Counted from the stretch's first letter, positions 21,546 through 30,403 are shown. The stretch: DNA of 32,000 nt from Candidatus Thorarchaeota archaeon (GCA_048882505.1 JBHLRO010000013.1:30001-62000); one strand, 5' to 3'. Notes: generated by a model from the letters alone, not told the origin. A program made the numbers and translations.

Positions 21546-22259
21546 TTATGACGCCTTTTTTGAGCTATTAAGTAATTTCTGATTCTTTAAAACGTATTTT
21601 GGCCCAAAGCCTTCCAGATTAGCAAGAGGCCCCTCTAAACCTTTCGGATTTCCCGTTTTTGTATACGTTATCTGAGTATCCAGAATTCCCCTAAAAACTT
21701 CAGATGGGCTATCATTAAACTTTAGTAACAATTGTTCCGCTTTTTTGACTCCAGTATTATGTAAGCCTTGGATAAGAAACAACTGTTGATCCCGAAGGCT
21801 TCTCTTTTTTGGGGCTGACCTAATGATTATTGGATCCGTTTTTTCCTCTTGTACCCAGGAAGCAATTCGGTTCAGACAGATTGTAGATTCCCCCATGCTA
21901 GCGGTTGGTATCACGGGAACCTGACGTTTAAGAAAAATATAGGTCAATGCGCCATAGACATGTTTCTTTCGTTTTTTCCATTCTGTACGTACGAATGCAG
22001 AGGGAAGATCTTCCAATAGTAATAGGGGTTGCTCGTAGGCTTCAATTAAGCGATCGATCTGTTCAAACAACCTGTTATCCATTAGAGAGGATATTAAATC
22101 GCCACCTGTCTTCCGCTCACAAACCACCTGTTCTGAGAAAACATAATCTCCAATATCAAGTTGACGTTCTTCAATTACCATTCCGAATCTCTCGGATAGA
22201 GCCTTTTTGATTCGGAGCGGTTCTCTATGATCTACTATCAAACGCAATCTGGTGTTCAT
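21546..22259 (-). CDS. xpf: Short-form XPF/ERCC4 structure-specific endonuclease (nuclease + 2 HhH, no helicase domain)
   Basis: IVDHRE, LDIGDY, VCERKT..DLISSL.DNRLFEQ, LLLLE; HhH-like GLHNTGVKKA and LEGFGPKY. Confidence 0.92.
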   Translation of the reverse strand: MNTRLRLIVDHREPLRIKKALSERFGMVIEERQLDIGDYVFSEQVVCERKTGGDLISSLMDNRLFEQIDRLIEAYEQPLLLLEDLPSAFVRTEWKKRKKHVYGALTYIFLKRQVPVIPTASMGESTICLNRIASWVQEEKTDPIIIRSAPKKRSLRDQQLFLIQGLHNTGVKKAEQLLLKFNDSPSEVFRGILDTQITYTKTGNPKGLEGPLANLEGFGPKYVLKNQKLLNSSKKAS

Positions 22260-22278
22260 TTAAACTCCAACGTATCAT

Positions 22279-24675
22279 TCATTTTGGATGATACCCAGAC
22301 TTGTTCAAAGAACCAGGTAACATATTATTCTGCACCATCGATGTTACCATTCGCTGAATGAGATCTGGGGGAATATTTAGCATAGAAAAATCCCCCCATC
22401 GAATAGTTTTTTTCGCTTGTTGTTCGGGGCGGTTAATAAAGTACAGAATCCTCCCCGCAGCATTTTTTAGAGTTAAAATCCTTTCATCAGTTGTACGAAC
22501 AAGCTTCTCATTTTCGTCTATTAATTTATGGAAAAAATCCAATTGGTTTTGGTTAATATCTACGTCCAGAATTTCCCCCAGTTCCGAAAGTGCCAGTTCT
22601 TGCCGATATTCAATGATTCCTTTAATTTCCTGTTGTATTCCTTTCTCTGTGATAAACTCTCCAACTGAATTCGTTATTCCTGAAAGCTGGAGGATCTCAT
22701 GCACGATAATCCTTAGGATAAAGTCTGGTAGTTCTAATTTGAAGGCCAGCACGTCAAAATTGATACGGGGATGCGTACTGATCTCATTTTGAACTCGTGT
22801 GAGGAGGTGCTCTTGTATAAAATATCTACCTTCTTTATCTTGTCTACTCACGTACTCTTGAAGAAGAAATTCGGATATTTGACGTTGTATCTCAGTGTTG
22901 AGTCCGTTAAACCCAGATTCCTTGATAAACTGTTCCATATGCAAGTAACCATAGGTATCATAGTAATCTTTCACCTGGTCCAGAATGTTTTTTATTGAGG
23001 AAACCTTCCCAGAATCAACTCGAACGACTTGAACATTTATGGATTTTACAAGACTGTCAAGAAAAACAGAAAAATCAATTCCGATAACTGCTAGTAGATG
23101 TTCTACTTCGGTTTCACCTAAATTGTTAATATCGTGTTCTATTTTAGCCAGTTCAGAATGGTCAATGAAAACCTGTAACCCTTCCAACCATCGTCCAGGA
23201 TGGGTCCCGTTGATAAACTCCATAAATTCCCGAAATTCGATTTGTGGGTTACCTAATTCTTGTACAAATCTATTGAATTCCTGTATCTTGTATTGGGCCA
23301 AATTCGTTTTCCACTTTTCCTTCACAAAGCGCTGTGTAATGAAGACCTCTTCCGAATTTAACCAACCATCTGTAGGGTGATGTATTTTAGGAAGAATAAC
23401 CTCTCTTATTCGTTCTGAATCAACATTCGTTTGTTTGCTGAGATCTAATAGAGAAAGGTATCCTATATTTTGAATATCGTCAGATATCTTTGATAACAAC
23501 GCCTCAGTGATATAAATTTCAGGGGAAAGCCTGCTGGTACCCGAAATCTCAGATATTACAGTTTCAAGGATATCCTTTCCAATCTGATCAAAAGGGTAGC
23601 GTTGTAGTAAAGCGGGGAGCTGAATTACGTTAAATTGCTCAAATTCAGCCCTAACTAGCTGTTTCAGTCCGCTATCTGTAAAAATCGTTCCATCTGAAAG
23701 CGGATACAGCTGCAGTTTCAGCATCTCCTCGATGAGAATCTTGATTGCTAGTTCGGTCAATTGAAGTTCATTTGATAGTTCAGAGTATTGGAACTGAACT
23801 TTATTAGATACTCGATTTCGTAAATCTTCAATAGCAAAAGTCATCTGAGTTTGCAAAGCAGAAACTGCTGTATCGAAATTCTGTTTCGTGGTTCTGGTTC
23901 CAAGATGAAGTAAAGCCAGCAAGTCAAGTTTACCTTGTTCAATAACGGTTTTTATTACTTCAGATTCACTCTTCTTAAGAAAAGCCGCTGCGGTTTCACG
24001 TACGTAGTCGTTTGAGTCGGATAAATTCTCAATAAAGGAAATTAAAACTTCTGGGCTAGCTTTTTCCTCCATGCGTTCGAGGGCAGAACCTGCCTGGTTA
24101 CGCGTCAAATCATCGAATTCTGGATTACGCATGATCTCAATTAAAACTCCAATAGCCCGTGGCGTTTTTAGCTTACCTAAGGCATAAATTACAGTACGTC
24201 GAAGTCCACCTGTCTCAGTCTCTAGTAATCGTAAGAGAATTGGTTCTACTCCCTTGATCTGATGTTTTATAACAATATTTAGTGCAGTATTCAAAACTGC
24301 CTTACTGGGATCTTTTAATGCCTTCATGGTAAAATCTGGTAACTTAGAATGTCCCTTTTCTGATAACCACTCCAAAGCATATGAGCGAATGCCTGGATTT
24401 GGATCTTGGGGATCGGTAAGAATTGAAAAAACTAGAGGAGCAACTAGTTTTGGAGTTTCTCTAGCTGTTCCGATGAGTGTGATGATCGTTGCCTCCCTTA
24501 CTTGGTCATTCTCATCTTTTGTCAGCGTTTGCAGAGATTTTCTGACCATTCGTTCACGAAATTCTTCTGGATTAGATTCCAAGAATCTCCTAAGGTTGAT
24601 TACAGCAAAAAGACGAACTTCATGATTTGTGGCTTTCAGGTTTCTTAAATCAGTGACTACTGAGGATTCTGACAT
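22279..24675 (-). CDS. HEAT-repeat + multi-winged-helix repeat protein (UFL1-like repeats)
   Basis: aa 1-240 hold about 7 HEAT repeats (DENDQVREAT, DPNPGIRSYA, DPSKAVLNTA, GGLRRTVIYALG, DSNDYVRETAA). aa ~285-790 hold about 9 repeats of ~55 aa with pattern G.[FY]IT...L...I...G.L.L..L...L.[VL]D. Confidence 0.8.
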   Translation of the reverse strand: MSESSVVTDLRNLKATNHEVRLFAVINLRRFLESNPEEFRERMVRKSLQTLTKDENDQVREATIITLIGTARETPKLVAPLVFSILTDPQDPNPGIRSYALEWLSEKGHSKLPDFTMKALKDPSKAVLNTALNIVIKHQIKGVEPILLRLLETETGGLRRTVIYALGKLKTPRAIGVLIEIMRNPEFDDLTRNQAGSALERMEEKASPEVLISFIENLSDSNDYVRETAAAFLKKSESEVIKTVIEQGKLDLLALLHLGTRTTKQNFDTAVSALQTQMTFAIEDLRNRVSNKVQFQYSELSNELQLTELAIKILIEEMLKLQLYPLSDGTIFTDSGLKQLVRAEFEQFNVIQLPALLQRYPFDQIGKDILETVISEISGTSRLSPEIYITEALLSKISDDIQNIGYLSLLDLSKQTNVDSERIREVILPKIHHPTDGWLNSEEVFITQRFVKEKWKTNLAQYKIQEFNRFVQELGNPQIEFREFMEFINGTHPGRWLEGLQVFIDHSELAKIEHDINNLGETEVEHLLAVIGIDFSVFLDSLVKSINVQVVRVDSGKVSSIKNILDQVKDYYDTYGYLHMEQFIKESGFNGLNTEIQRQISEFLLQEYVSRQDKEGRYFIQEHLLTRVQNEISTHPRINFDVLAFKLELPDFILRIIVHEILQLSGITNSVGEFITEKGIQQEIKGIIEYRQELALSELGEILDVDINQNQLDFFHKLIDENEKLVRTTDERILTLKNAAGRILYFINRPEQQAKKTIRWGDFSMLNIPPDLIQRMVTSMVQNNMLPGSLNKSGYHPK

Positions 24676-24702
24676 GGATTTACCTCGATATTTTATTTCC
24701 TT

Positions 24703-25167
24703 TTAATCAGATACCCAATCTTTAAGGATGAAACTAGCGTCCCAACCAGACTTGGCTTGTACCACTTTTCCCTTGGATCCCAATAGCGACAAGAAACCCA
24801 GATAATTCTTTACAGTATTGATATCGATATTTGATAAGGCCTCCGCAATTTCATCCTCCGGTTTTCCTGTGGTTGATAAACTTTTCAAGATTTCCGCCGC
24901 ATCTTCAATAAGTTTATACCGATAGGGCTTGTTCGTTCTAGGTTCCCCGATCGGATCGAGCAGCCATTCATTATTCTTTTTGATTGCCCGACCGTACGAG
25001 TGAAGATATGCCAAGAAAGACAATGAATAATACGTATCACTCAGACATAGGTCAGTACCAGGTGAAACCTCATACGGGGTCACTTCATCAGCTAAATATT
25101 CCAGCTTCTCTATAACTTGCATGAAAGTGCTAAATGGGAATCCATTAAAGGGGGGGATCTCTAACAA
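24703..25167 (-). CDS. Hypothetical protein with two tandem winged-helix-like units
   Basis: Internal repeat YSLSFLAYLHSYGRAIKKNNEW versus NYLGFLSLLGSKGKVVQAKSGW. TTG start is uncertain. Confidence 0.65.
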   Translation of the reverse strand: MLEIPPFNGFPFSTFMQVIEKLEYLADEVTPYEVSPGTDLCLSDTYYSLSFLAYLHSYGRAIKKNNEWLLDPIGEPRTNKPYRYKLIEDAAEILKSLSTTGKPEDEIAEALSNIDINTVKNYLGFLSLLGSKGKVVQAKSGWDASFILKDWVSD

Positions 25168-25214
25168 GGATTAAACATCCGGGTTTATATCAGAAGGAGG
25201 GTACTCAAAAAATC

Positions 25215-25754
25215 TCATATCCGTCTATTAACTTTTTCGATTTCTTGTGCACGGATGTGACCTGATAGAATAAAGATTTTTTCTCCCAATACTGTTTTTT
25301 CCCCCGTTTGAGTGTATCCTTGTTTTTCATAAAAGGTTTTCAAGTAAGGAGTTTTTTCATAAATTTCTAACTCTATGGTCTTTATCTTAGAATTTCGTCT
25401 CGTTAATACGCGAGAAACTTCCTGAACTACCCATTTTCCGTAGCCCTGCCTTTGGTAACGTGGCGAGATTGAAAAGTGATACATCTTATATGTCTCTTCG
25501 TCCTGCTCTTTTAGCGACACAGTACCAATAATACGATTAGCAAGAGTGACAATAAAAAGTTCATGATTATCGAAAGTTTCCTTAATTTTTTTATCTGTAT
25601 TACTTAATACCCCAGGGGGGCGTGATAACGCCTGTAGAACGGGTAGATATGCCTCACGGATAATGGCCTCTATTTGTGGGAGGTGCTCTATTTTCGCTCT
25701 CTGTAATTCTAATTTTTGCACGAATGAACCCCGTTTATGATACTTTGTCATCAA
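25215..25754 (-). CDS. GNAT-family N-acetyltransferase
   Basis: IIGTVSL, FSISPRYQRQGYG (motif A), FYEKQGY; start overlaps the upstream stop (ATGA). Confidence 0.92.
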   Translation of the reverse strand: MMTKYHKRGSFVQKLELQRAKIEHLPQIEAIIREAYLPVLQALSRPPGVLSNTDKKIKETFDNHELFIVTLANRIIGTVSLKEQDEETYKMYHFSISPRYQRQGYGKWVVQEVSRVLTRRNSKIKTIELEIYEKTPYLKTFYEKQGYTQTGEKTVLGEKIFILSGHIRAQEIEKVNRRI

Positions 25755-26518
25755 TGGGGAATAATCTCTTTGATCTGGGCCACGGTATCTGAAATTTTTA
25801 CTACAAGGCTCTCGAGTTTGGTTTCGGGATTGCCATCAATGCAGAGTATCAATCCTTCAGATATCTTATATGCAACAAGATGAGTTGCCTCAGATGAAGC
25901 AATCAGATAGCGCAAATTTCGCATATGAGAGGAAACCGTTAGGATAGTGATGAAGGTGGACATTCTATCTCTGTCCATTTGGAATTCAACAACTGGCTCA
26001 CCCGTAAATGAAACAATCATGGCACCTCGTATACCGACATCCTCATTTTTGACGAGTTTTCGTAGATAAAAAAGAGCCGCCTCTTTCGAGGAAGAGAGTA
26101 ACTCACGTGTTTCTCCTTTAAAAACTGCATCCACCTGCATTGAAAAATTTCTGAACATTTCTGTGTCGATTAATTGAATATCCTTATGGTTGGGGTGCTC
26201 AGATAAAAATAAACTGGAGATCGTTTTAAGTTTAAATTGCAAATCCATAGTAGAGACTAGCGGGGAGGCCAAAACCGCGAATACCAAGCCATCTTTTTCT
26301 ATGAAAGAAAAACGGACGTCCTCCATATCCACCACCCGGAGATCACTTAATGCTGAGGATTCCGCAAAGGAAAACATTGCTGTCAAAAAAGCAACCACCA
26401 AATGTGGATCGGGCGCTTGTCTATTAATTTCCTCATAAGATCTAGTTATTAAAGTATCCCCACTTTCTCGTCGGAAGATAAAGAACGCCTTAATGTCTTT
26501 AAACGCATGCAATGACAA
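25751..26518 (-). CDS. Longin-like domain + roadblock/LC7-like domain fusion
   Basis: N-terminal half FFIFRRESGDTLITRSY..DPHLVVAFLTAMFSFA..LRVVDMEDVRFSFIEKDGLVFAV (longin pattern). C-terminal half GIRGAMIVSFTGEPVV..LRYLIASSE..HLVAYKISEGLILCI (roadblock pattern). Confidence 0.75.
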   Translation of the reverse strand: MSLHAFKDIKAFFIFRRESGDTLITRSYEEINRQAPDPHLVVAFLTAMFSFAESSALSDLRVVDMEDVRFSFIEKDGLVFAVLASPLVSTMDLQFKLKTISSLFLSEHPNHKDIQLIDTEMFRNFSMQVDAVFKGETRELLSSSKEAALFYLRKLVKNEDVGIRGAMIVSFTGEPVVEFQMDRDRMSTFITILTVSSHMRNLRYLIASSEATHLVAYKISEGLILCIDGNPETKLESLVVKISDTVAQIKEIIPH

Positions 26519-26530
26519 TGAAAAGTCACC

Positions 26531-27085
26531 TCATAAGAACTCTTTTGCCCTCACATTGAGGATATTCGTCGTCATGGTCTGGAATGCTTCATTTACATTC
26601 TTACCTGTTTTGGCGCTTGTTGTGATATAATCAATGACATGCATACTGTCTTTTGCCTTTTTTACTTCTGCCTGTGTAATGCCCGGTTTTAGGTCTACTT
26701 TATTTCCTATTAGGAGGGACAACGAATTTGGCGCAACACGGAGAACCTGGGCCTGCCAACGTTCCTGAATATGGATCAAGGTGTCTGCACGAGTTAAATC
26801 AAAAACATAGAACGCTCCTAAGGCCCCTTTTAAGTATAAATGAGAATAAGAAACATGTCGAGCTTGACCCGCGATATCCCATAACTGGAGGCTAACGTGG
26901 CGGATAGTATCTTGGGTATCTATAAAACGAATTGTTTTGGTTAAAAAATCTACCCCCAACGACATTGAATAATCTTCTTTGAATTTATTCTCAATAAACC
27001 GCAAAATTAAGCTTGTTTTCCCTACAGCCCCATCTCCCATCAAAAGCAATTTCAGAACATGTTTTATTTCTTTCATTTTGGGCAT
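26531..27085 (-). CDS. Rab-like small GTPase (Ras superfamily)
   Basis: G1 GDGAVGKT, G2 region SLGVDF, G3 WDIAGQ, G4 NKVD, G5 SAK; RabF-like LGVDF, SLQLW, YLKGA, YVFDLT; AGGAG upstream on the minus strand; no C-terminal Cys. Confidence 0.95.
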   Translation of the reverse strand: MPKMKEIKHVLKLLLMGDGAVGKTSLILRFIENKFKEDYSMSLGVDFLTKTIRFIDTQDTIRHVSLQLWDIAGQARHVSYSHLYLKGALGAFYVFDLTRADTLIHIQERWQAQVLRVAPNSLSLLIGNKVDLKPGITQAEVKKAKDSMHVIDYITTSAKTGKNVNEAFQTMTTNILNVRAKEFL

Positions 27086-27366
27086 AAATTTGTCTCCTTA
27101 CATTGGTCAGTTTTTGGTCACGTTTTTTTTCGTAACTCAGACAGTATGGTAGTTTTATTTGAAACCCACGAAAACGTCTGCTTCGCTCTAAGAATAAATG
27201 GGCCGTAGAGAATCTATTTTTTTTTTAAAGAGTTCTTTAATATGTCAAAAATCTGCCGATTTGAGACGGTTAAAAAACCTTTACACCAAGAGACCGCGCA
27301 TGAGTAGGTTGATTCGCTCCAGAACTGTAAAGTGATGAATGTAATCCCGCGATTGTATATTGATAG

Positions 27367-27606
27367 GTGCCCTTGAATATGGAAGACGATTACCTGGGAA
27401 CAGAAATGTGGATTAAGGTCGTTCTAAAGGATTTAGGTGAAGCAACCACTCAGGAGATAATTGATCACGTTAAGATATACAACCAAGAATGTGCAGATCG
27501 AATTCCAATGGCATTGGCTCAAATGCGAACCAACGGGAAGGTATATTACAAGATTCGGGCATCGCAAGATGAAAAAAGAAAGAACATGGTGTGGAAATTG
27601 ATATAA
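27367..27606 (+). CDS. Small winged-helix protein
   Basis: VVLKDLGEATTQEIIDHV..RIPMALAQMRTNGKVYY..VWKL fits three helices plus a wing. Alternative ATG start at 27379. Confidence 0.7.
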   Translation: MPLNMEDDYLGTEMWIKVVLKDLGEATTQEIIDHVKIYNQECADRIPMALAQMRTNGKVYYKIRASQDEKRKNMVWKLI

Positions 27607-27610
27607 GAGG

Positions 27611-29329
27611 TCAAATCTTAATTTCTTGACCTTCCAAGGGAATAATAATGTCCGGGCTCATCCTATGGATTTCAACCACGTATTCTCTTGTTTCATCCCC
27701 AAGATGCGTCAATACGAGCCGCTTGGTATATTCGGTTAGTTTTTTTGCTTGGAAATAATTTAGGTGGACTCCTGCGAGTTCACGACGAAAGAAATTGCAC
27801 TCTACCACTGCCAGATCTGTGTTTCTGACAAGTTCAATGAGATTGTCTGTCCATCCTGTATCCCCTGAATAAGCTAACTTCATGAATGGGGTTTCTATTC
27901 GATAACCCTGCGCTTCTGGTGTGTGTGCCATGGCAATAGGGATTATCTGTATCCCATTGCTAGCAAAAGGCTTTTTATGAGTTATTTCAACGTAATAGCA
28001 CGGATGGGGGAGTTCGATTTTTGGTATATTTCCATAAAACAGGTGAAACAATTCACTAATTCGGTTTTTGAGTAGAGGAGGCCCAAGGATCGTGAGAGGT
28101 TTGGTGCGTGATGGGTGAAGATACATCAATTCCAAAAGGAGGAAGGGCATGCCAGCCAGATGATCTCCATGAAAATGGGTGATAAGAATCATATCGAGAT
28201 CATCGGTACTTCTCCCCGTTGCCTTCAATGCCTGAAGAGCATGGGGTCCGCAATCCAAGAGAATTCCCTTATGCTGAAATTCTAAAAAAATACCTGCACT
28301 CTTAAAGCCAGCCGCAGCAAAAGCATCTCCTGTTCCTAAAAAAACTAAATTCCCATGAGGTTTATTTTTTGAAAGTATCCGAGTTCCTACTGATCTGCTA
28401 TTATTCAAAACATAAGGAAAATCTTCTACACCAGTAACCACACAATCTACATACCCTCTCGCGAGCTGAACAATATTTTCCAATTTTCCCTGCATAGCAC
28501 CCGTCACATCGTGTCCTCCGCTGGTTTCCCCGCTTTCGAATTCCAATAAAGCGTTTTTCTCTCCATAGCATAGATAACGGTCAGGAAAAACTTCTATTCT
28601 GTTAATATATTTTGCTCCGTTTAAAAATGGATCCTTGGTATATATTCCAACCTTTTTTCCTGAGACTTGTGTAATAAAGATTGCCCTGGTCAAGTTAAGC
28701 CCTGAAATACGATCCATGAGTGCAGATGGAATAATATCCCCTGAAAACACTCGCCATCCATCGTGAGTGTAACCCATATCTCCAAAAAACATAGGTATTA
28801 CATTCGTATTGCTAATTAAATCCTCCAGTACGTCAAGATTGGGCGCGGTTACCTTTTTTGCCGCTTTTTCTGTAGTAGGATCTCCTCTCAAGATCTGATG
28901 CGAAGTAATGGAAACGGTCGGTAGTCCCGCCTGGATCCCTGTCGCGACAAGAATCTGGTTCTGAATTCCGACTGCTAGCTTGATAACGGGGGAAATTTCC
29001 TGGAGGGTTTTTACATCCTCTGCAAGCGTGGCAACAAGGGGATGACCAATAGAGCCAGCACCATGCAATAGGATTATCTTTTCATGGGGAGTCTGCCTAA
29101 GATGACCACGTATGGTCGTGAAAATTTTATTGGCTTGTTGCAGATCAAGAAGATTGAAGATAGTGGTCTGCAAATCAGACAAATTGGCAGAAGAGTCCAT
29201 AAAACTCTCGATCGAAGTCAAGTATTCATGAATCCTGTCATTATCATGCTTTCGTGTGATTACGTTTCCTCCCAGTTTAACTAGCGTAAGATCCTGCTTT
29301 TTCATTACTTTAATCCCAGCATAGCTCAC
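27611..29329 (-). CDS. Isopentenyl phosphate kinase (amino-acid-kinase fold) fused to an MBL-fold metallohydrolase
   Basis: aa ~14-319: LVKLGGNVIT, HGAGSIGH, FGD, FSGD, DVTGAMQGKL. aa ~326-572: FLGTG, LLDCG, THFHGDH, YSGDT, VVEC, HLN, LTHL. Likely ATG start at 29305. Confidence 0.88.
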   Translation of the reverse strand: MSYAGIKVMKKQDLTLVKLGGNVITRKHDNDRIHEYLTSIESFMDSSANLSDLQTTIFNLLDLQQANKIFTTIRGHLRQTPHEKIILLHGAGSIGHPLVATLAEDVKTLQEISPVIKLAVGIQNQILVATGIQAGLPTVSITSHQILRGDPTTEKAAKKVTAPNLDVLEDLISNTNVIPMFFGDMGYTHDGWRVFSGDIIPSALMDRISGLNLTRAIFITQVSGKKVGIYTKDPFLNGAKYINRIEVFPDRYLCYGEKNALLEFESGETSGGHDVTGAMQGKLENIVQLARGYVDCVVTGVEDFPYVLNNSRSVGTRILSKNKPHGNLVFLGTGDAFAAAGFKSAGIFLEFQHKGILLDCGPHALQALKATGRSTDDLDMILITHFHGDHLAGMPFLLLELMYLHPSRTKPLTILGPPLLKNRISELFHLFYGNIPKIELPHPCYYVEITHKKPFASNGIQIIPIAMAHTPEAQGYRIETPFMKLAYSGDTGWTDNLIELVRNTDLAVVECNFFRRELAGVHLNYFQAKKLTEYTKRLVLTHLGDETREYVVEIHRMSPDIIIPLEGQEIKI

Positions 29330-29353: not shown

Positions 29354-30403
29354 CTATGGTTTATTAATTTCGTTAAGAACTGCTGCAACCAGAAGATCTA
29401 ATGTAGCTTGAATATCGTTCATACGGACAGTTTCAAAATCAGTATGGGTATACCGGGTTGGTACAGCTACCATTACCGTGGGATGGCCTCTTTGGAAAAA
29501 ATGCATTCCATCTGTGTTGAAATTTCTGAAAACTGCTTTTTGCATAGGTACCTCGAAATTCTGGGCACTTTTTTCCAAGAGCTTAATGTTATCTATGGAA
29601 TAGTGGATTGAAAAGTCTTTATAGACGATTATTGGCCCCGCTCCTAGTTTTGTAGGTAAGAAATCTTGTTCAGATGAAGGAATATCACCTACCAGACCAA
29701 CATCAATAATAATTACCAAATCATACCTATCATGAAGTGCAGCAGCAGCGGCTCCTTTCATTCCGATTTCTTCTTGCACAGTTGAGACCAATGTTAGATT
29801 TGGAGAGGTTTTTCTTCCTAAAACCTCATCCACTAAAAGACACTGAAGAGTCAAAGCCACTCGATTATCCATACTTGGACCCACGATGTTTCGCTGCCTA
29901 TGTACCACACTGGATGCAAAAACAGCTGGTGTTCCAATATCTATCCCTAGCGCATGGACTTCTTGATCTGAATCGACGCCAAGGTCAATGAAAATCTCTG
30001 GAAAGAGCACGGGTTTTTTTTTACCCTCGATTCCCGCCAGATGGCCGCTACGCAGTCCAATGTAACCTTCGACAGTCCCTGTATCTGTAAGAAACCTTAA
30101 GGGAACTCCCGATAGGAACCGTGCATCCGGAGTGGTAGCTGCTGTGTTAAAAGCAACCTTTAAAAATCCGTTGGGAAGAATTCGCTCAACCAGGAACCCT
30201 ATCGTATCTGCATGCCCTACAATAGCGATATGTTTTCCTTCCCCTTCCAGGCGACCGAACAAATTGCCGACCTTGTCTTCCGACGTTTTTAACCCCATTC
30301 CCTTCCAATTGTTTCTGAGAAAGTGTTGAACAGCCCCTTCTCGACCTACGGGTCCAGGTATTTCTGCTAGTTGCTTCAACAATCCAAAAATATCATGATC
30401 CAT
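29354..30403 (-). CDS. M42-family metallopeptidase (TET-like aminopeptidase)
   Basis: GPVGRE, DKVGNL, GHADTIG, FIDLG, SMDNR, TVQEEIGMKGA, IDV, TDG, VPTRYTH. Confidence 0.95.
   Translation of the reverse strand: MDHDIFGLLKQLAEIPGPVGREGAVQHFLRNNWKGMGLKTSEDKVGNLFGRLEGEGKHIAIVGHADTIGFLVERILPNGFLKVAFNTAATTPDARFLSGVPLRFLTDTGTVEGYIGLRSGHLAGIEGKKKPVLFPEIFIDLGVDSDQEVHALGIDIGTPAVFASSVVHRQRNIVGPSMDNRVALTLQCLLVDEVLGRKTSPNLTLVSTVQEEIGMKGAAAAALHDRYDLVIIIDVGLVGDIPSSEQDFLPTKLGAGPIIVYKDFSIHYSIDNIKLLEKSAQNFEVPMQKAVFRNFNTDGMHFFQRGHPTVMVAVPTRYTHTDFETVRMNDIQATLDLLVAAVLNEINKP

Follow-up and report, generated by a model that had tools for sequence, protein, structure and literature searches.

A run of six genes in a Hodarchaeales genome is probably a composite of a GTPase-longin/roadblock pair and a scaffold-nuclease unit

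We examined a run of six genes within a 32,000-nucleotide stretch of an archaeal assembly (GCA_048882505.1, JBHLRO010000013.1:30001-62000; hereafter the window, on contig 13 of genome G000). The record carries the name Candidatus Thorarchaeota archaeon; the host genome belongs to the Hodarchaeales (Heimdallarchaeia, Asgard). Labelled from upstream to downstream, the genes encode a Rab-like GTPase (A), a longin-roadblock protein (B), a GNAT N-acetyltransferase (C), a 154-aa protein (D), a 798-aa HEAT protein (E) and an XPF nuclease (F). A first-pass annotation of the sequence had proposed a single operon for a GTPase-switched module or, failing that, a chance run of co-directional genes. We conclude, with moderate confidence, that the locus is instead a composite neighbourhood specific to one Hodarchaeales genus and made of two units, not one operon. 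In the first, A and B would form a cognate switch pair, to which the GNAT, and a hexapeptide-repeat (Hexapep) acyltransferase in relatives, would be coupled as facultative passengers. The second would consist of E, a fast-evolving and genus-restricted scaffold, encoded directly before the widely conserved short XPF nuclease F. The appearance of a six-gene operon would then result from the absence of an M42 aminopeptidase gene and from short spacers in the window's species and its closest relative.

The six open reading frames (ORFs) lie on the minus strand at 21546-27085, with gaps from A to F of 12, -4, 47, 27 and 19 bp. Our ORF listing returned the same coordinates and gaps as the first-pass annotation, whose calls of a Rab-like GTPase, a longin/roadblock protein, a GNAT enzyme and an XPF nuclease are likewise borne out by the results below. 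The product of A matches Pfam Ras far above the cut-off (134.7 bits against 21.6; E-value 2.8e-39), and also Roc (6.6e-28) and TIGR00231 small_GTP (1.4e-21). The motifs G1 (GDGAVGKTS), G3 (WDIAGQ), G4 (GNKVD) and G5 (TSAK) are invariant in 13 aligned orthologues and paralogues, the G3 glutamine (DxxGQ) included. No C-terminal cysteine prenylation motif of the kind carried by eukaryotic Rabs was found in A, the tail of which ends in RAKEFL. Identity among A orthologues of the genus is 71-99%.

The partner of A combines a longin and a roadblock domain in a single chain. The AlphaFold2 (AF2) model of B, based on 18 homologues, has a mean predicted local distance difference test score (pLDDT) of 76.3 and the topology bbabbba followed by abbabbba. 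In Foldseek searches of the PDB with the whole chain (about 280 columns), Mon1, Ccz1, Fuzzy, Inturned and HPS proteins ranked on top (E-values of 7e-9 to 3e-7), and the C-terminal half matched the Asgard Roadblock3 (9jue), MglB and LAMTOR with TMt values of 0.70-0.76. Pfam gave Fuz_longin_1 at 18.9 bits (E-value 0.0018), under its cut-off of 26.1, and a PDB profile search with B found nothing significant, its only match being an SRX domain at an E-value of 0.13. Within the literature library searched, no description of Asgard Mon1/Ccz1-like proteins was found. In a search of the class, each of the 21 other genomes of the genus had a B orthologue, the sister family f2 had one with 44% identity, and most genomes of the genus had in addition a second full-length paralogue (25-30% identity); elsewhere in the class the same search gave only partial matches the size of a longin domain. 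A search for related loci with a close B alignment recovered only the genus and one f2 genome.

Three lines of evidence bear on A and B as a pair. First, the two genes are adjacent in every congener, with a gap of at most 20 bp or an overlap in 16 loci. Second, the arrangement recurs in paralogous form. On contig 5 of the window genome (L098:6105-7443, minus strand), a GTPase gene with 44% identity to A overlaps a B-like gene with 28% identity to B, and paralogous pairs of this kind are also found in G009 (L101) and G015 (L102). In the f2 genome (G022, L100:639-2807, minus strand), one GTPase gene is followed by two tandem B-like genes with 29% and 22% identity to B. None of these paralogous or f2 loci has GNAT, HEAT or XPF neighbours, which indicates that the pair was duplicated and kept as a pair, independently of C to F. 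The f2 layout recalls a heterodimeric pair of the Mon1-Ccz1 type, and a further Ras-like GTPase (32%) is encoded near the contig 5 pair (L098:1791-2375).

Third, a predicted complex of two B chains and one A chain scored 0.55, with the best control at 0.02. Of 80 solved complexes, 58 came up to the mark used, as did 2 of 110 mismatched pairs; among those that did so, scores of 0.60 or less came from only 7 of the 80 solved complexes and from both mismatches, so the A-B result, which falls in this low band, is weak support. Prediction runs agreed in at least 0% of contacts, and partner pLDDT was at least 77. Because Mon1-Ccz1-Rab7 and MglA-MglB have already been solved, the pass may also reflect memory or likeness.

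Small GTPases number in the dozens in Asgard genomes, where longin and roadblock proteins are also plentiful. The matching of regulators to GTPases mostly cannot be read from gene order in Asgard archaea, and in MK-D1 small-GTPase genes generally lie outside operons with roadblock or longin genes, which hampers the matching (Tran et al., PMC10933270). Against this background a fixed A-B pair is informative. We regard A and B as a probable cognate GTPase-regulator pair, and only these two behave as a conserved unit. The first-pass annotation had described the GTPase as having its own regulator: the partnership is upheld by the genus-wide adjacency, the paralogous pairs and the weak-pass complex, and regulation itself we infer. 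Mechanistically, the switch regions of A would engage the longin/roadblock platform of B, itself probably a dimer, and B would in this way control the nucleotide state of A. A role of B as a guanine nucleotide exchange factor (GEF) is slightly favoured; an MglB-like GTPase-activating protein (GAP) is distinctly less probable, and a passive platform or effector a little less probable again.

The relation of this pair to the rest of the run was examined in about 18 kb around the E orthologue from 19 congeneric genomes, by tblastn with the six products and seven flanking ones and with ORF maps. The whole region is colinear in the 19 loci, flanks included (an isopentenyl phosphate kinase (IPK)-like and metallo-beta-lactamase (MBL) fusion, M42 aminopeptidase, ketopantoate hydroxymethyltransferase, phosphopantothenate synthetase and GHMP kinase). 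Since these housekeeping flanks are as colinear as the cluster, conserved order inside the genus carries little information on an operon. Gaps and gene content, tabulated for 16 congeneric loci, vary in the interval from B to E, which takes up zero to two extra genes (the Hexapep acyltransferase and a 255-aa gene of unknown function); the GNAT is absent from 5 of the 16 loci and D from 8. A second M42 gene, for a glutamyl-aminopeptidase (1.8e-93), lies directly upstream of E in 15 of the 16 and has no counterpart in the window or in its closest relative, which is the 16th locus. Spacers of about 100-150 bp precede this M42 gene, and E itself is preceded in relatives by about 100 bp (up to 150), a spacer in which several of them share the TATA-like motif aaatacccttatatg. 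Only A-B and E-F stay tight across congeners; wherever E and F both occur (14 congeneric loci), they are 8-36 bp apart or overlap. With the M42 gene and long spacers in the other congeners, the six-gene compaction is specific to the window's species and its nearest relative.

These comparisons bear directly on the proposal that all six genes form one GTPase-switched module, in which A, gated by B, would control a HEAT and winged-helix (wH) scaffold (E and D) that recruits the acetyltransferase and XPF. The packing in the window speaks for it. SD-like (Shine-Dalgarno-like) motifs precede A, B, E and F, with AAGGAG ahead of the ATG of A and GGAG ahead of F. By a crude ORF call, the genome has 109 co-directional runs of at least six genes (23% of genes) and only 14 in which all gaps are at most 50 bp (2.6% of genes), so that packing this tight is uncommon here. 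Co-orientation is kept across congeners, and HEAT solenoids commonly act as effectors of small GTPases. Set against this, the middle genes vary, with the peptidase and the Hexapep acyltransferase interposed in relatives; spacers of 100-150 bp with promoter-like motifs stand before E in relatives; the paralogous and f2 GTPase-B pairs are without C to F; f2, in which no E was found, has a B orthologue; and XPF and UFL1-like homologues outside the genus have other neighbours. We accordingly consider a single six-gene module very improbable, and find no support for placing the GNAT, wH, HEAT/UFL1-like and XPF genes with the GTPase in the way the first-pass annotation supposed. Within the window itself, a T6 run directly past the stop of C and an ATATAAA about 20 nt ahead of D hint at an internal boundary but prove nothing; a T-rich stretch (T6) also follows F.

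Of the middle genes, C is assigned as a GNAT enzyme, with three families above their cut-offs at E-values of 3e-12 to 2e-11: Acetyltransf_10 (47.0 bits, cut-off 23.6), Acetyltransf_7 (45.9, cut-off 27) and Acetyltransf_1 (44.7, cut-off 20.7). It reached no NCBIfam equivalog threshold, the closest model, rimI, being far under its cut-off. The Hexapep (LbH) acyltransferase of relatives, of about 240 aa, is encoded between B and the GNAT in many congeners, often with a 4-bp overlap at the GNAT start, and has weak, sub-threshold matches to the eIF2B-epsilon LbH and dynactin-5 families. The extra 255-aa gene found between B and D in some relatives was considered as a B paralogue and rejected.

D had been described as a tandem wH protein, a call that is suggestive at most. 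Its secondary structure, HH-bb followed by HHH-bb, is compatible with a partial plus a canonical winged helix; Pfam and NCBIfam gave no match, a PDB profile search gave nothing meaningful, and the model is poor (pLDDT 53.5). Its structural neighbours in the Atlas are all wH proteins, all at TM below 0.5. A profile search found D in 21 of 21 genomes of the genus and in none of the 62 other genomes of the class. In the clade that lacks D in the cluster, a D orthologue occurs at a second locus in 6 genomes, adjoining or within about 1 kb of a gene for a 156-aa longin protein that matched the longin half of B (Fuz_longin_1 E-value 3.8e-4). D thus accompanies longin genes of the Mon1/Fuzzy type in two settings, a modest indication that it may be part of a GTPase-longin network rather than a companion of E and F. 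A D paralogue (profile E-value about 1e-13) is encoded elsewhere, at L175:5627-6094 (plus strand, contig 1 of G000) and L176:5607-6071 (minus strand), beside a gene whose product, about 779 aa long, is AAA_16/BrxC-like (ATPase) at its N-terminus.

E is the largest product of the run. It matches HEAT_2 strongly in Pfam (7e-20), and E3_UFM1_ligase (PF09743) only just above its cut-off (24.1 bits against 23.2) over residues 322-454; at an E-value of 0.01, PF09743 is matched by only 2 of 18 E orthologues. An hhalign comparison with an Asgard PCI/DDRGK/UFL1-like family gave a probability of 96% and an E-value of 2e-9 over residues 284-482 only, about 200 residues. The HEAT part of the earlier HEAT/UFL1-like call is therefore solid, and its UFL1-like core is marginal. 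In PDB profile searches, full-length E found only designed HEAT repeats and its C-terminal part had no match even at an E-value of 10. A single-sequence search with the C-terminal 544 residues found them in 21 of 21 genomes of the genus and in 0 of 62 elsewhere in the class, and only 8 representatives among 1.84 billion matched E at 1e-30 or better. By tblastn, E orthologues of the genus are 35-43% identical; the corresponding values of A, B and F are 63-77%.

A profile of the C-terminal part of E reaches further, to proteins of about 790 aa in other Asgard families, including 97 of 135 genomes of one family (E-values down to 1e-14). These proteins match PCI (2e-26), DDRGK (1e-17) and E3_UFM1_ligase (2e-16), and have a Cys-rich N-terminus and a VPS28-like C-terminus; no HEAT repeats were found in them. 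Their conserved neighbours are genes for a DsbD-like membrane protein, a GT87 glycosyltransferase, a NikR-like regulator and a ferredoxin, and no XPF or GTPase gene was found near them. A parvulin peptidyl-prolyl isomerase is also among the conserved neighbours of this family.

This likeness raises the question of whether E is a true UFL1 orthologue in a UFM1-like conjugation pathway, which would make the locus, with its GNAT, a protein-modification cassette. UFL1 and DDRGK1 originate in Asgard archaea before UFM1 (Picchianti et al., PMC10183829), and that origin, the E3_UFM1_ligase match above cut-off and the tie of residues 284-482 to Asgard proteins with strong PCI, DDRGK and UFL1 matches all favour such a reading. 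The scarcity of PF09743 matches among the orthologues and the empty PDB sequence search with the C-terminal part of E count against it. So does the genome, which is 94.5% complete and gave no match to Ufm1 (PF03671) or UFC1 (PF08694), the UFC1 result being weak because that search was positive in no control genome. The lack of both agrees with the finding that UFM1 and UFC1 are present only in eukaryotes, and a UFM1-independent role has been suggested for the archaeal UFL1/DDRGK1 proteins (PMC10183829). We give a conjugation pathway at this locus very little credence.

F is a short-form XPF. Its ERCC4 match is well above cut-off (6e-22; 78.5 bits against 24) and the translation holds the catalytic GDY...ERK...D signature. 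In NCBIfam it matches the Hef nuclease (3.6e-35) and Arch_Xpf (NF040956; 1.7e-30, 106.3 bits against 300), both below the equivalog cut-offs. No C-terminal PCNA-binding motif is conserved among F orthologues, and the tail past residue 223 (the last 14 residues) is not conserved. F identity is 63-91% within the genus, and orthologues with 41-57% identity occur in five other families of the class, among unrelated neighbours; in the sister family f2 the neighbours comprise a PIN-domain gene and an MFS fragment. One f2 gene of 148 aa, located upstream of XPF, was considered as a D homologue and rejected, its product being a PIN-domain protein. In all, the genome has five ERCC4-domain genes: one for a 751-aa Hef-like protein, F, and three weaker ones of about 220 aa.

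A further explanation leaves out the GTPase: E and F may be a functional pair, with E as a lineage-specific scaffold or targeting subunit for a short XPF homodimer, in a role analogous to that of ERCC1/SLX4-type partners or of PCNA for crenarchaeal XPF. The tight spacing of the two genes in 14 of 14 loci, kept while E diverges to 35% identity, and the SD-like GGAG before F would be expected of such a pair. Yet the adjacency is confined to a single genus, where colinearity extends over the whole region; XPF is by far the older of the two and occurs without E elsewhere; and E evolves far faster (35-43% identity) than F (63-72%). As XPF is older and found elsewhere in other contexts, the E-F adjacency is as young as E. 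We regard a dedicated E-F partnership, by analogy with those systems, as possible and rather unlikely. An apparent truncation of the XPF gene in G015 (L023:7206-8030, minus strand), where E is intact, could have been taken as a sign that E needs no F, and was rejected; it reflects an N run in the assembly.

Several observations weigh against a two-unit composite. All five spacers in the window are at most 47 bp and SD-like motifs precede most genes, which makes co-transcription of the six genes quite possible. One orientation is kept for all cluster genes in every congener despite the turnover in content, and this could reflect selection for co-expression. The M42 gene may have been lost here or gained in the other clades. 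The E-F adjacency is invariant wherever E exists, so that a functional link is possible; the association of D with longin genes comes from two contexts only; and the A-B complex prediction is a weak pass. A bolder history is that, in the window's species and its nearest relative, the absence of M42 and the contraction of spacers fused two older units into one transcript and that A-B became co-expressed with E and XPF and physically coupled to them, for example by A-GTP docking on the HEAT solenoid. We think this most unlikely; if true, the locus would encode a structure-specific nuclease module gated by a GTPase, of which no archaeal counterpart has been described.

On balance the two-unit composite is the reading we prefer, and the first-pass alternative, that the genes run in one direction by chance, comes near the truth as regards how the two halves are joined. 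The apparent six-gene "eukaryote-signature operon" would be mostly an accident of local packing, a view that cautions against reading GTPase effectors into the nuclease, the acetyltransferase and the UFL1-like scaffold. The A-B pair, duplicated as a pair, offers biochemists an already matched GTPase and partner with which to study how eukaryotic Rab activation arose.

Features of the window and of related loci are given in the table. The region upstream of A, described in the first-pass annotation as AT-rich, does have a lower GC content than the whole window (36.7% against 40.7%) and is only mildly AT-rich. It separates A from a divergent 79-aa gene without a family match.

Table. Features of the window and of related loci (L-numbered loci and contig C2 of G000 in their own coordinates)
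Feature	Position	Strand	Remarks
A, Rab/Ras-like small GTPase, 184 aa	26531..27085	-	best family Pfam Ras
B, single-chain longin (~9-107) and roadblock (~142-252), 255 aa	25751..26518	-	from AF2 model and Foldseek
C, GNAT N-acetyltransferase, 179 aa	25215..25754	-	overlaps B stop (TTGA / TGATG)
D, 154 aa, TTG start, probably winged-helix-like	24703..25167	-	genus-restricted
E, 798 aa: HEAT solenoid (~1-250), UFL1-like winged-helix core (~284-482), uncharacterised C-terminal ~310 aa	22279..24675	-
F, short-form XPF/ERCC4 nuclease, 237 aa	21546..22259	-	followed by T-rich stretch
Divergent intergenic region	27086..27366	.	between A (-) and conserved 79-aa gene (+)
79-aa gene	27367-27606	+	49-96% identity across genus, divergent from A in every case
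IPK-like and metallo-beta-lactamase (IPK-MBL) fusion	27611-29329	-	full-length across genus, 43-90% identity
M42 aminopeptidase	29354-30403		housekeeping flank gene of the window
Second M42 gene	L022:6794-7876	+	27-31% identity to the window gene at 29354-30403
Hexapep acyltransferase	L023:12195-12917; L025:5388-6065; L036:5294-6058	-; +; +	congeners
D orthologue at second locus and 156-aa longin gene	L169:5437-6444; L170:2155-3204; L171:5293-6459	+; +; -	near peroxiredoxin and flavodiiron-type genes
~790-aa family	L127:8405-10771 and 10 similar loci (L126-L139)	- (L127)	widespread in another Asgard family
Other ERCC4 genes	G000:C2:314558-314938 and three other loci (L040, L042-L044)

Each part of the locus can be set beside a known system. 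F resembles the crenarchaeal-type short XPF and the Hef nuclease domain, having an ERCC4 domain with GDxnERKx3D followed by a helix-hairpin-helix-like tail in about 235 aa; it differs from archaeal XPF in falling far below the NF040956 cut-off and in showing no conserved PCNA-binding motif, and its genome also has the 751-aa Hef-like gene. E relates to the UFL1/DDRGK1 wH (PCI-like) scaffolds (PMC10183829) through residues ~284-482, which are homologous to the wH-repeat core of the ~790-aa Asgard proteins. Unlike those proteins, E has an N-terminal HEAT solenoid in place of the Cys-rich N-terminus, is without the VPS28-like C-terminus and is confined to one genus.

For B, one comparison is with MglA-MglB and the Asgard roadblock proteins (9jue, Roadblock3 of Prometheoarchaeum; 7f8m, Thorarchaeota; PMC10933270), on which its C-terminal half superposes with the TMt values given above. 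MglB is, like B, a prokaryotic small-GTPase partner encoded beside its GTPase; B differs in that its chain also includes a longin domain, at the N-terminal end. As a GAP, MglB acts on a GTPase, MglA, that has an intrinsic arginine; A, by contrast, is Rab-like and carries the DxxGQ glutamine.

The other comparison is with the tri-longin subunits of Rab GEFs (Mon1-Ccz1, Fuzzy-Inturned/CPLANE and HPS1-HPS4/BLOC-3). These share with B the order of longin then roadblock, are its best whole-length Foldseek matches and supply its sole Pfam lead, Fuz_longin_1, and B is encoded beside a Rab-like GTPase. B is shorter, with two domains in 255 aa against about 400-570, and its model ends after the second domain, the third (LD3) being absent. 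It is also a single gene with no heterodimer pair at this locus, although f2 has two tandem copies, and its identity to the tri-longin subunits is 9-15%, with the Pfam match under cut-off. GEF activity is a prediction for B. The best reading of A-B is as a variant of the known longin/roadblock GTPase-regulator theme.

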